A stretch of 64,000 nucleotides of DNA, from the NCBI GenBank assembly GCA_963715775.1, contig OY970274.1, forward strand, positions 263,043-327,042. Direction: 5' to 3'. Shown here piece by piece: positions 6,632 to 44,892 of this stretch. Origin of the DNA: an uncultured Solirubrobacterales bacterium (lineage in GTDB: Bacteria > Actinomycetota > Thermoleophilia > Solirubrobacterales > Solirubrobacteraceae). A program made the position numbers and the translations under genes. Each line of letters begins with the position of its first letter. Within the stretch, counting starts at the first letter, position 1. The notes under the pieces are model-generated. The model made no database searches. It saw only the letters and a program-made list of their open reading frames with translations, and was not told the origin of the DNA.

Positions 6632-9168
6632 GCCTGGCGAACATCCTGTTCCTGTACCGCGCACGGCTGCGGGCGAGGGCGGTGCTCGCGCAGGAGGGGT
6701 TTGCGGTCTTCGGGATCGCAGTCGGTGTGGCGCTGCTGTTCGCCAGTCAGGTGGCGAGCACGAGCCTGTCGAGCTCGGTGACGGCGCTCGATAAGCAGAT
6801 CGTCGGACGCACGCAGTTTCAGCTGCAGGCGAAAGGTCCGGATGGCTTTGACGAAGGTCTGCTCGAACGGGTGCGGCGGGCGCCGGGTGTGCAAACGGCG
6901 TTTCCGATCTTGGAGCAGCAGACCAACGTGATCGGGCCGAGCGGTGAGCGGTCGGTCGATCTGATCGGCGCCGATCCGCGCTTCGCGAGCGTGGGCGGGG
7001 CATTGTTGCGACGGTTTTCCGCCCAGCAGCTCGCTGTTCAGAACGCGATCGCGCTGCCGGCGCCGCTCGCCGGCGAAATCGGTGCGGGCTCGCTGGTCCA
7101 GATCAAGCTCCAGATCGGTGCGCGCGTGGCTACTACTCTGCTCGGCGCGGCGCTGGGCGAAAGCGAAATCGGTGGGCTGGTCCACAGTCCCGTCGCGCTT
7201 GCCCCGATCCACTACGCCCAGCGGTTGGCGGGGATGCGGGGAAGAGTCACACGGATCTTCATCCGCGCCCAGCCGGGACGCGAACGTGAGGTGCAAGCGG
7301 CGCTCTCGACACTCGCCGCGAGCGCGGGCGTGAACCTCGATCCGGCCGATTACGATACGAAGCTGTTCGCGGTGGCGGTGGCGCCCGAGAGTAAAAGCGA
7401 GGCGCTGTTCTCCGCGATCAGCGCGCTGGTCGGTTTTATGTTCGCGCTCAACGCGATGCTGATCACCGTGCCCTCGCGCCGGCGGCTGATCGAGGAGGTC
7501 CGCCCGCAGGGCGCCACGCGGCTGGCGATCGTCCAGATCCTGCTGTTCGACGCCGCCGTGATCGGCCTGCTGGCCTGTGTCCTGGGTCTCGTGCTCGGAG
7601 ACGTTCTGTCGGTCGCCGTCTTTCGCACGACGCCCGGCTATCTGGCGTTTGCATTCCCGGTCGGGGACAACCGGATCGTGACGTGGCAGAGCGTCCTGCT
7701 GGCCGTTGGCGCCGGACTGGCGGCCGCGATCGTGGGGGTGCTCTGGCCGCTGCGCGCGGTCCTCACGCGTCCTCTGCAGACCGGTGATCAGACCGGTGAT
7801 GGGTCCGCAAGCGCCCGGCCGGGTTGGGTTACGGCCAGACTGGCTGTCGGGCTGGCGTGCCTCGCCGTTACGCCGGTCGTCTCGACTGCCCACAACCAGG
7901 GGGCGTTCTTTGGGAATATCACGCTCCTCGTCGCGCTCGTCTGTCTGCTGCCGTTTCTCTTCGATGGGCTCGTGTGGCTGTTCGCACACGCGCAGCGTCC
8001 GCTCAACGGGGCGGCGACCGTGCTCGCGGTCACGGGGTTGCGGACTCCCCAGACCCGAGTGCGCTCGCTGGCGATCGCTGTGACGGCGGCGGTCGCGGTG
8101 TTCGGGGCGGTCCAGTTTCAGGGTATCCAGACGAACCTCACGAACGGCCTCGACGCATCCATACGCGGCATCGACTCGAGCGCCGAGGTGTGGGTCACGC
8201 CGGGCGGGGATTCCAGTCTTCTGTCAACGACTCCCTTTAGTCCGATCGATTCCGCCGCTATCGCTCGTCGCCCGGGAGTCGCCGCGCTCGGTGTGTACCG
8301 CGGCGGATTTCTTGACTGGGGCGCTCGACGCCTGTGGATTCTCGCGCAACCTGCCAGTACTCCGCAACCGATCCCGGTGAGCCAGCTCGTCAGCGGCGAT
8401 CCCGCCTTGGCGGCCATCAGAATCCGTCAGGGCGGCTGGGCGGTGCTCTCCCAAGCACTGGCCGGCGAACACAACCTCCACGTAGGTCAGACGTTCGTGC
8501 TGCCCTCGCAGCACTACATCAAGTTGCGTGTGGCGGCTTTGAGCACGAATCTGGGATGGCCACCGGGCACGATCATCATGAACGCCGCCGATTATGCGCG
8601 CGCCTGGGGGAGCAGCTACCCGAGCGCATATGAGATTCAGACCAGCCCCGGAGCGTCTGCCGTGATGGTCCGCTCCCAAGTACAGCGCGCGCTGGGCCCG
8701 GGAACGGGACTCGTGGTCGAAACCACAGGCGAACGCGAGCGGCGCCACTACGAGCTGGCGGCTCAGGGACTCTCGCGGTTGACGCAGATCAGGCTGCTCG
8801 TGCTGATCGCCGTAGTGCTCGCCGTGACGGGCGCGATGGGCTCGATGCTGTGGCAGCGCCGCGCCCTGGTCGCATTCATGAAGGTGGACGGATACCGCCG
8901 GGGTGTGCTGTGGCGATGGCTGCTGTGTGAGAGCGCGATCCTGCTCGCGGCGGGTTCTTCGATCGGAGCGGTTTTTGGTGTCTACGCGCAACTGCTGGGA
9001 AGCCACTTTCTGGCGAGTGCCACAGGTTTTCCGATCGTGTACAACGTCCAGTGGCTTGCCGCGCTCTCCAGTTTCGCACTGGTCACCGCCTTCACGGTCG
9101 CGGCCACGGCCCTGCCCGGGTATCTCGTAGCGAGGGTGCGTCCCAGGGCCGTCAGTCCTGCCTATTAG
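6628..9168 (+). CDS. ABC transporter permease (FtsX/MacB-like, duplicated)
   Basis: Two repeats of TM1, large extracellular domain and 3 TMs; ATGA overlap with the ATPase stop. Confidence 0.85.
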   Translation: MSLANILFLYRARLRARAVLAQEGFAVFGIAVGVALLFASQVASTSLSSSVTALDKQIVGRTQFQLQAKGPDGFDEGLLERVRRAPGVQTAFPILEQQTNVIGPSGERSVDLIGADPRFASVGGALLRRFSAQQLAVQNAIALPAPLAGEIGAGSLVQIKLQIGARVATTLLGAALGESEIGGLVHSPVALAPIHYAQRLAGMRGRVTRIFIRAQPGREREVQAALSTLAASAGVNLDPADYDTKLFAVAVAPESKSEALFSAISALVGFMFALNAMLITVPSRRRLIEEVRPQGATRLAIVQILLFDAAVIGLLACVLGLVLGDVLSVAVFRTTPGYLAFAFPVGDNRIVTWQSVLLAVGAGLAAAIVGVLWPLRAVLTRPLQTGDQTGDGSASARPGWVTARLAVGLACLAVTPVVSTAHNQGAFFGNITLLVALVCLLPFLFDGLVWLFAHAQRPLNGAATVLAVTGLRTPQTRVRSLAIAVTAAVAVFGAVQFQGIQTNLTNGLDASIRGIDSSAEVWVTPGGDSSLLSTTPFSPIDSAAIARRPGVAALGVYRGGFLDWGARRLWILAQPASTPQPIPVSQLVSGDPALAAIRIRQGGWAVLSQALAGEHNLHVGQTFVLPSQHYIKLRVAALSTNLGWPPGTIIMNAADYARAWGSSYPSAYEIQTSPGASAVMVRSQVQRALGPGTGLVVETTGERERRHYELAAQGLSRLTQIRLLVLIAVVLAVTGAMGSMLWQRRALVAFMKVDGYRRGVLWRWLLCESAILLAAGSSIGAVFGVYAQLLGSHFLASATGFPIVYNVQWLAALSSFALVTAFTVAATALPGYLVARVRPRAVSPAY

Positions 9169-44054: not shown

Positions 44055-44768
44055 ATGGATCGCGCTTCTTTGGAGCAGCTGTTGGGGCAGGGGTTGTCGC
44101 TGGCCGAGATCGGCCGGCGGTTTGGGTTGCACGAATCGACCGTTGGCTACTGGGTCGAGAAACATGGGTTGCGGGCGGCCAACCGCGACAAGCATGTGGC
44201 CCGCGGCGGTCTTGCCCGGGAGGATTTGGAATCGCTGATCGAACGAGGCATGTCGATCGCCCAGATTGCGGAGGCAGTCGAGTGCAGCAAGGGGACCGTA
44301 CGCCACTGGCTCCGGCAATATGGTCTGAAAACCCAGGCGCAACGATGGATCGGCGAGGAATCGACGCGCGCGATGAGAGGGGCCGGGAAGGCGACGGTCA
44401 TGCGGGAGTGCCGCAAGCATGGCGTCACCGAGTTTTGGCTCGAGGGTCGTGGCTATTACCGCTGCAAGCGCTGCCGTTTGGAGCGCGTGAGTCGACGCAG
44501 ACGAAAGGTTAAGCAGATCCTGGTAGCCGAGGCCGGTGGATGTTGCGCACTGTGTGGCTACGACCGTTGCGTTGCGGCGCTTCACTTCCATCACCTCGAT
44601 CCCAGCAGCAAGCAGTTTCATCTGAGCATGCACGGCGCCGCTCGCTCGATCGCCTCCGCGCGTGCCGAGATGGCGAAGTGCGTGCTGCTGTGCGCCAACT
44701 GCCACGCAGAGGTTGAGTCGGGGCTCGCGACTCTCGAGACGGATGCAATCCGAAGCGGGCTTGCGTAG
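44055..44768 (+). CDS. HNH endonuclease with two HTH domains and a zinc finger
   Basis: Two IA..(G/C).....V..W....GL HTH repeats; CRKH..YRCKRC; CALCGY..LHFHHLDP..K..KCVLLCANCH. Confidence 0.85.
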   Translation: MDRASLEQLLGQGLSLAEIGRRFGLHESTVGYWVEKHGLRAANRDKHVARGGLAREDLESLIERGMSIAQIAEAVECSKGTVRHWLRQYGLKTQAQRWIGEESTRAMRGAGKATVMRECRKHGVTEFWLEGRGYYRCKRCRLERVSRRRRKVKQILVAEAGGCCALCGYDRCVAALHFHHLDPSSKQFHLSMHGAARSIASARAEMAKCVLLCANCHAEVESGLATLETDAIRSGLA

Positions 44769-44783
44769 AATCTCTGCCTGCGG

Positions 44784-44856
44784 TCCTCGGCAGCTCGATT
44801 GGCCGAGCGCTCGACTGTTAATCGAGAGGTTGTGGGTTCGAGCCCCACCCGGGGAG
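44784..44856 (+). tRNA. tRNA-Asn (GTT) with non-canonical C8, G14, C21; CCA not encoded
   Basis: Acceptor TCCTCGG/CCGGGGA, D stem GCTC/GAGC, anticodon stem CTCGA/TCGAG with CTGTTAA loop, T arm GTGGG-TTCGAGC-CCCAC. Confidence 0.93.
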
Positions 44857-44892
44857 CTGTTTGAAGTCGCTTGGAAGTCCGTCGCGTCCAGC

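Follow-up and report, generated by a model that had tools for sequence, protein, structure and literature searches.

The only tRNA-Asn gene of this genome carries C8, G14 and C21 in place of U8, A14 and A21, which are textbook near-invariants of the tRNA fold. Considering the evidence as a whole, we think it probable that the gene encodes an essential, working tRNA-Asn whose core is compensated in the manner of tRNA-Sec, that the same core has recurred in other tRNAs, and that the gene resides in a homing-like cassette with an HNH endonuclease gene. The stretch of DNA that was analyzed (64,000 nucleotides, hereafter the window) is C1:263043-327042 of the source genome (G000), a single contig of 3,195,523 bp with 68% GC.

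The sole tRNA-Asn gene departs from the consensus at positions 8, 14, and 21

The tRNA-Asn numbering is free of insertions, so position n corresponds to window base 44783+n. The gene and its relevant bases, with the evidence for each, are:

44784..44856, plus strand: tRNA-Asn(GUU), 73 nt, CCA not encoded (ARAGORN, Rfam RF00005, copy count)
44787..44788, plus strand: U4 and C5, derived acceptor-stem bases (ancestral G4 and G5; compared with L037-L041, which retain TCCGGGG)
44791, plus strand: C8, canonically U8 (sequence; U8 in 29 relatives, C8 in 11 other congeneric species)
44797, plus strand: G14, canonically A14, proposed Watson-Crick partner of C21 (sequence; joint change of 14 and 21 in the genus; D-arm fold)
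44798, plus strand: A15, Levitt-pair partner of U48, a permissive background (enrichment of A15:U48 with the alternative core)
44804, plus strand: C21, canonically A21 (sequence; covariation with G14 and C8)
44831, plus strand: U48, Levitt-pair partner of A15 (sequence; A15:U48 enrichment)
44851..44852, plus strand: G68 and G69, partners of C5 and U4 (ancestral C68 and C69; C5-G68 and U4-G69 pairing preserved)

ARAGORN calls tRNA-Asn(GTT) at 44784-44857, and Rfam RF00005 matches 44784-44856 over the full length of the model (1-71) with 53.7 bits (E=9.8e-9). This Infernal-type score, which the original prediction had named as a check, exceeds the gathering cut-off of 29, and zero non-standard pairs were flagged in the Rfam alignment. 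All four stems (acceptor, D, anticodon, and T) are intact, and the acceptor stem includes a U4-G69 wobble. G18G19, a TTCGA T-loop, A15/U48, U1-A72, and G73 are retained, and the 7-nt anticodon loop, CTGTTAA, has U33 and A37, with the anticodon given by ARAGORN as gtt. In everything else that marks a tRNA the gene is ordinary, and it departs only from the near-invariant U8/A14/A21 set. C8 (44791), G14 (44797), C21 (44804), the stems, G18G19, the T loop, and the A15-U48 pair were all as originally read from the sequence.

The gene is one of 48 tRNA calls made by ARAGORN in the genome, where Rfam gives 47 tRNA matches. Across the whole single-contig genome, no second tRNA-Asn was detected by ARAGORN, Rfam, or BLAST with the canonical tRNA-Asn of relatives. 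The question posed alongside the original prediction, whether the C8/G14/C21 gene is the only tRNA-Asn of the genome, is thus answered in the affirmative. None of the other tRNAs in the genome has G14/C21.

No AsnRS scored above the curated cut-off in the genome. An archaeal-type non-discriminating AspRS (ND-AspRS; NF003483, 484 bits) and GatB (478 bits) are present, and tRNA-Asn must therefore go via ND-AspRS and GatCAB. ND-AspRS would charge tRNA-Asn with Asp, which GatCAB would then amidate. The substrate features of this indirect pathway are found in the tRNA (U1-A72, G73, and no extra D-loop base) together with the matching enzymes in the genome, and the tRNA is presumably expressed and charged by this route. 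The tail domain of GatB reportedly recognizes the tRNA's D-loop and core (PMC2811023). The GatB tree shows no sign of co-adaptation of GatB with the tRNA core and gives no order of events.

A search for THUMP-domain proteins (PF02926) found none in the genome, while a control search matched 11 of 14 reference genomes. ThiI-type s4U8 synthesis thus places no constraint on position 8, and the earlier remark that U8 is the s4U site is moot here, with zero THUMP-domain proteins encoded.

Several other tRNA genes of the genome are unusual in their own right. Two tRNA-Trp(CCA) copies lie 1.8 kb apart (C1:3175049-3175122 and 3176877-3176950), one with U8 and the other with C8, both with A14/A21. Likewise, tRNA-Trp dominates (53 of 108 genes) among the phage-contig tRNAs that differ only by C8. 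On the minus strand, C1:1879073-1879168 holds a 96-nt tRNA (Rfam, 66.6 bits) that ARAGORN left untyped. Its predicted fold is a cloverleaf whose anticodon loop, CUUUCAA, has the anticodon UUC (Glu) and whose D-loop contains an additional hairpin of ~20 nt; ARAGORN gives no second tRNA with a UUC anticodon for the genome. A weak Rfam tRNA match (C1:2617157-2617234, 31.8 bits), ~60 nt past tRNA-Gln(UUG), partially duplicates the 3' portion of that gene and is perhaps what remains of an integrative element's attachment site.

Distribution of the variant within the genus

The 29 tRNA-Asn genes compared from the same genus and order all have U8/A14/A21. To follow the alleles more broadly, a 200-genome sample of the genus was surveyed. 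C8/G14/C21 occurs in 11 further congeneric species, and U8/G14/C21 occurs in one, G085, as its sole detected tRNA-Asn. In each of the 10 variant genomes checked besides G000, the genus-wide pattern finds no tRNA-Asn but the variant. No allele in the genus sample has G14 without C21 or C21 without G14.

The variant alleles differ among themselves in the acceptor stem. Five genomes (G052, G209, G156, G093, and G127) combine C8/G14/C21 with the ancestral acceptor stem TCCGGGG. In another four (G173, G181, G193, and G161) a C-G pair is added at 5:68, with or without C-G at 4:69. The remaining three (G000, G070, and G062) have U4/C5, and the G69/G68 partners are present in G000 and G070. G077 has the same anticodon stem and a canonical core. 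C60 goes with the core in this genus and is absent with the core in other lineages, so it is not part of a general module. A15:U48 is present in every tRNA-Asn allele extracted from the genus, and the background was thus already permissive for the core.

Over positions 26-69 the tRNA is ~98% identical to its nearest canonical congeners, and the gene order HNH, tRNA-Asn, glycosyltransferase is common to the congeners. A foreign origin of the tRNA-Asn is ruled out by this identity and this conserved order, and the locus is therefore native.

The tRNA-Asn genes of the genus are diverse in further ways. In L002-L005, L007-L009, and L044-L055 the D-stem contains an additional U on its 3' side (GATGC in place of GAGC), and L021 has GTAGC. 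The extra U predicts a bulged D-stem in the apparent tRNA-Asn of those congeners. The anticodon stems in L001-L055 can be wholly different among congeners (CUCGA, CUCGG, UUCGG, GUCGG, AGAUC, GGACC, GGACG, and others), always keep pairing, and differ even between the sister genomes G003 and G023. Such diversity is far above what would be expected within a genus and fits cassette exchange.

A conserved leader of ~15 nt abuts the mature 5' end in L002-L009 and L044-L055, including L004 and L051, which are without an HNH gene, and is also seen in L019, which is HNH-less as well. Its sequence duplicates the 5' end of the tRNA itself (TCCGGGGTAGCNCGA) and has G where position 14 would fall. A longer version of the leader, containing GATTGG, is present in L047, and the variant alleles are without the leader. 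The leader may be left over from an earlier allele, or it may serve in processing or as a target for a nuclease.

Recurrence and covariation of C8, G14, and C21 in other tRNAs

We scanned 185,579 species genomes for the pattern C8-A9-GCTC-G14...GG...C21-GAGC followed by a T-arm. The scan returned at least 120 matching stretches, at least 61 of which are tRNA genes confirmed by ARAGORN. Among the matches listed, 17 are tRNA-Asn of Solirubrobacterales, and the other tRNA genes, at least 44, come from at least nine phyla (one of them again Actinomycetota) and represent 12 or more isotypes. Among the matches listed, tRNA-Arg is the commonest, and tRNA-Ile(UAU) of Planctomycetota comes second. The core is also carried by several actinomycetes in culture, among them Luedemannella flava JCM 13250, Actinocatenispora rupis NBRC 107355, and Actinoplanes and Dactylosporangium, the last two in tRNA-Arg(UCU). 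The remaining pattern matches, haloarchaeal and ~30 others, lie inside coding DNA and were rejected as chance.

Two of the loci merit separate mention. In L086 and L087, from Planctomycetota MAGs, tRNA-Arg(CCU) and tRNA-Arg(UCU) stand in tandem ~5-10 nt apart and both have C8/G14/C21; the core seems to be the lineage norm for those Arg isoacceptors of Planctomycetota. L132, from a Myxococcales MAG, has a C8/G14/C21 tRNA at 6689-6763 with the ARAGORN anticodon UUA, which reads the stop codon UAA. This tRNA could be suppressor-like or mistyped.

Dependence among the three positions was examined in viral contigs using seven patterns that differ only at 8, 14, and 21. Matches inside ARAGORN tRNAs were deduplicated, and the counts cover the class of tRNAs in which A9, a GCUC/GAGC D-stem, GTTCRA, and a variable loop of 5 nt are combined. 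Written in the order 8/14/21, the unique phage tRNA sequences number 23 for CGC, 7 for UGC, 0 for CGA, and 6 for CAC, with 52 for CAA, 70 for UGA, and at least 94 for UAC. The triple change (23) is more frequent than every double change (7, 0, and 6), even though each single change is a rare deviation. C8 depends on the joint presence of G14 and C21 (Fisher p = 8e-17 versus G14/A21; 3e-14 versus A14/C21), and among phage tRNAs with C8, G14 tracks C21 (Fisher p = 5e-15).

Position 15:48 is also biased. A15:U48 accompanies the core in 20 of 23 phage tRNAs and in 29 of 41 genomic tRNAs from outside Solirubrobacterales, where G15:C48 was seen in none and one, respectively. Among canonical tRNAs with the same D-stem, 70% have G15:C48, and A15:U48 makes up 63 of 328 (19%). 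By these comparisons of sequence, C8/G14/C21, together with A15:U48, appears to have arisen repeatedly in bacterial and phage tRNAs. The triple is not described for elongator tRNAs in the open-access papers and preprints searched, and specialized tRNA compilations may mention it.

These data bear on whether the gene is instead a pseudogene in decay, or the product of an error in assembly or consensus calling, with the true tRNA-Asn being canonical. Its Rfam score is low for the genome (53.7 bits, 41st of 47), and the genome appears to be a MAG, both of which speak for such a reading. However, the one-contig genome contains no other tRNA-Asn, changes in the stems preserve pairing, and the covariation is non-random. 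Identical or near-identical alleles are present in a dozen or more independent assemblies, which argues against assembly error. We regard decay or error as having a negligible probability and as effectively refuted. The sole-copy status, the conservation across species, the stem changes that keep pairing, and the three-way covariation of 8, 14, and 21 elsewhere instead point to a functional tRNA with a compensated core. Compensation rather than decay had been proposed at the outset, and the proposal of a functional tRNA with an alternative core is now borne out by strong comparative inference.

A tRNA-Sec-like model for the core

G14 and C21 flank the 13-22 pair. The bases permit a fifth D-stem pair, and positions 14 and 21 covary like a pair. 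Folded in isolation, the D-arm forms a 5-bp stem at -6.4 kcal/mol versus -3.9 for the canonical arm, and MFE folds of the whole tRNA are non-cloverleaf for variant and canonical alleles alike. In the crystal structure of Aquifex aeolicus tRNA-Sec, a G14:C21:U8 triple stands in place of U8:A14 (PMC3711452). The covariation and this triple together make a fifth D-stem pair, G14-C21, with C8 docked on it, likely.

In such a model, the G14-C21 Watson-Crick pair would extend the D-stem to five pairs and leave a six-base loop that still presents G18G19. C8 would dock on the major-groove side of G14-C21, replacing the U8:A14 reverse-Hoogsteen pair, and the resulting triple would stack on the A15:U48 Levitt pair. 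We infer that the N4 amino group of C8 donates to O6/N7 of G14 and that its N3 accepts from N4 of C21; U8 would offer fewer contacts.

The proposed arrangement resembles that of bacterial tRNA-Sec, in which a 14-21 Watson-Crick D-stem pair with residue 8 docked on it replaces U8:A14, and the U8/G14/C21 state of tRNA-Sec itself occurs in the genus (G085). In tRNA-Sec, however, the acceptor/T helices are 8/5 or 9/4, the D-stem has 6 bp and closes a 4-nt loop, the extra arm is long, and the anticodon is UCA. The tRNA-Asn described here is a type-I elongator with 7/5 helices, a predicted D-stem of 5 bp closing a 6-nt loop, a variable loop of 5 nt, and the anticodon GUU. It also keeps the 15:48 Levitt pair and has C8 instead of U8.

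Substitutions at 8-14 have been made in the yeast suppressor SUP4oc, where eight of nine double substitutions were non-functional and only A8-G14 worked (PMC4117946, Guy et al. 2014). As in tRNA-Asn, the 8-14 pair of SUP4oc could be functionally replaced when both partners changed. Unlike tRNA-Asn, SUP4oc is an engineered suppressor, the working pair was A8-G14, and position 21 was not co-varied (PMC4117946). By analogy, a C8-G14 contact alone may be insufficient, and the failure of most SUP4oc doubles fits a need for the third change, C21.

A different explanation is that C8 is edited after transcription to U8, as in Methanopyrus kandleri, and that the mature tRNA has the tRNA-Sec-like U8/G14/C21. 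In the C8 tRNAs of M. kandleri, A14 and A21 are canonical, and C8 must be deaminated. Those tRNAs share with tRNA-Asn a C encoded at the near-invariant position 8, which CDAT8 edits to U8 (as cited in PMC4117946). The product of such editing is viable, given that U8/G14/C21 is found in the sole tRNA-Asn of G085, in 7 phage tRNAs, and in A. aeolicus tRNA-Sec. However, in tRNA-Asn positions 14 and 21 change along with 8. CDAT8 is a deaminase-THUMP fusion, and the genome encodes no THUMP-domain protein and hence no CDAT8-type C8-to-U8 editor. C8 is also the majority state with G14-C21 (23 versus 7 phage sequences), arguing that C itself is favored. Editing is therefore very improbable in our estimation, and C8 docked as such on G14-C21 is preferred.

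An HNH endonuclease gene is co-inherited with the tRNA allele

Immediately upstream of tRNA-Asn lie two further features:

44055..44768, plus strand: HTH-HTH-HNH endonuclease gene, 237 aa, ending 15 nt before the tRNA (Pfam HTH domains, phrog_2255)
44766..44771, plus strand: TAGAAT, candidate -10 element, 12 nt before the tRNA and overlapping the HNH stop codon (conserved spacing)

TAGAAT is found at equal spacing in variant alleles, in the U8/G14/C21 allele L042, and in the canonical L043. A sigma-70 consensus scan upstream of tRNA-Asn returned zero promoters and did not detect the TAGAAT candidate.

The HNH protein has two Pfam HTH domains and a C-terminal CxxC...HFHH...CANCH module. The Pfam HNH match is marginal (E = 0.06), and the protein matches the phage HNH endonuclease families phrog_2255 (E=2e-30), phrog_3106, and phrog_35854 (2e-30 to 8e-18). 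The gene is single-copy in the genome. Across most of the genus a homolog is found ahead of tRNA-Asn, whether the tRNA is canonical or variant, and at least 25 canonical tRNA-Asn alleles adjoin an intact one. The variant allele has no HNH gene within 1.1 kb upstream in L035 and L037 and has a truncated one in L038. Truncated or stop-containing copies are found in L038, L043, L022, and L047. A strict association of the HNH gene with oddities of the D-arm was considered and is ruled out by the existence of HNH-positive alleles with a canonical D-arm.

To compare the history of the locus with that of its host, quick single-gene ML trees were built from MAGs. On the GatB tree the core state is scattered no better than shuffled labels. 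The tree of the downstream glycosyltransferase agrees with the GatB tree and not with the tRNA state. By both glycosyltransferase and GatB, G209 (variant) and G008 (canonical, with a different anticodon stem) are tight sisters, and likewise G003 and G023. The eight HNH sequences adjacent to G14-C21 tRNAs, in contrast, all group as a single clade on the HNH tree (SH-aLRT 99), a degree of clustering that none of 500 shuffles reached. G085 nests in this variant HNH clade with weak support, and the order of the change between U8 and C8 is not given by the tree.

Pairwise alignment of the sisters G003 and G023 reveals a clean indel of ~780 nt comprising the HNH gene and ending ~20 nt before the tRNA. 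Between G209 and G008, divergence is confined to a tract that covers the HNH gene's 3' half, the tRNA, and ~70 nt downstream. The G209 locus is a mosaic: its flanks best match G008 (~92%), and the 3' part of its HNH gene (78-80%) and its tRNA (100%) best match the variant clade. The trees and alignments indicate that the HNH gene and tRNA allele are co-inherited as a cassette with a history differing from that of the flanks. Exchange of this cassette between species looks like homologous replacement of a homing-like kind.

The HNH clade, the indel, the mosaics, and the degenerate copies are together characteristic of a free-standing homing-endonuclease cassette in which the adjacent tRNA is co-converted. 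The family of the nuclease, its presence/absence polymorphism with degenerate copies, and a history unlike that of the host genome are what is found of such cassettes. In T4, the free-standing homing endonuclease SegB has a site that includes a conserved tRNA-gene motif and carries neighboring tRNA genes along (PMC2330249). SegB (PMC2330249) and T4 mobE (PMC2790892) resemble the present case in that the nuclease is beside tRNA genes, shows presence/absence polymorphism, and is co-inherited with the flanking tRNA. However, SegB is a GIY-YIG enzyme of a phage, and the gene described here encodes a putative HTH-HTH-HNH homing endonuclease beside a single-copy, essential chromosomal tRNA in Actinomycetota. 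According to our model, the core would have arisen within one lineage of the HNH-endonuclease/tRNA-Asn cassette in this Solirubrobacteraceae-like genus, and the cassette would then have passed among species by homing-like homologous replacement, presumably driven by the nuclease.

The original prediction had raised the possibility that the variant was selected to escape the adjacent nuclease or an anticodon- or tRNA-targeting toxin. One part of the link to the HNH gene stands, namely that the variant is co-inherited with one HNH clade. The other part does not, as L035, L037, and L038 are variants without an intact HNH gene. The survey of positions 8, 14, and 21 with and without the nuclease, proposed as a way of judging the link, thus went against it. 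Since the core occurs without HNH and HNH occurs beside canonical tRNAs, escape fails as originally stated.

A fuller version would hold that the adjacent HNH is a homing endonuclease that recognizes the tRNA-Asn gene, and that C8/G14/C21 and other odd alleles were selected for resistance to cleavage while still functional. The perfect match of the HNH clade to the core state of the tRNA speaks for it, as do the presence/absence polymorphism and mosaic loci. So does the unusual variety of tRNA-Asn alleles in the genus, some with swapped anticodon stems and some with an additional U in the D-stem, mostly beside HNH genes. The recognition of a conserved tRNA-gene motif by T4 SegB, which drags neighboring tRNA genes (PMC2330249), is a precedent. 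Outside the order, a Chloroflexota tRNA-Asn with the core has fragments of an HNH homolog ~470 nt away.

However, linkage alone accounts for the congruence of HNH and core. The core is found in nine phyla, among the matches listed, and in phages without an HNH homolog nearby. Intact HNH homologs stand beside fully canonical D-arms (L027 and L030), and the variant persists where HNH is lost or truncated (L035, L037, and L038). Selection for resistance to cleavage is therefore unlikely. We give similarly little credence to an arms race driven by a selfish HNH, with C8/G14/C21, bulged D-stems, and swapped anticodon stems as cleavage-immune functional alleles spreading with nucleases. Co-inheritance of a compensated core with a homing-like cassette is the reading we retain.

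Beside the at least 44 tRNA genes with the core listed from outside Solirubrobacterales, no HNH homolog was found, barring the Chloroflexota fragments. In that locus (L116, a Chloroflexota MAG), the C8/G14/C21 tRNA-Asn is at 1912-1985 and the HNH-like fragments are at 2454-2927, ~470 nt off. They are homologous to the nuclease domain of the HNH protein described here, with 42-57% identity.

Significance

C8/G14/C21 is a natural, recurrent, and statistically supported alternative to U8/A14/A21, and it serves as the core of the sole tRNA for one amino acid. A contact known from the crystal structure of tRNA-Sec would thereby be extended to ordinary elongator tRNAs. Close species with ~95% identical GatB use canonical and variant alleles interchangeably, which is in effect a natural allele-swap experiment. 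For structural biology the triple is a defined covariation module, and for tRNA engineering it is a possible orthogonal core. It is also a warning for annotation, as such genes are not to be dismissed as pseudogenes. The cassette, for its part, has the look of homing-type gene conversion, here at an essential tRNA gene present once on the chromosome of soil Actinomycetota. If true, such conversion would account for tRNA-Asn being so unusually diverse in this genus.
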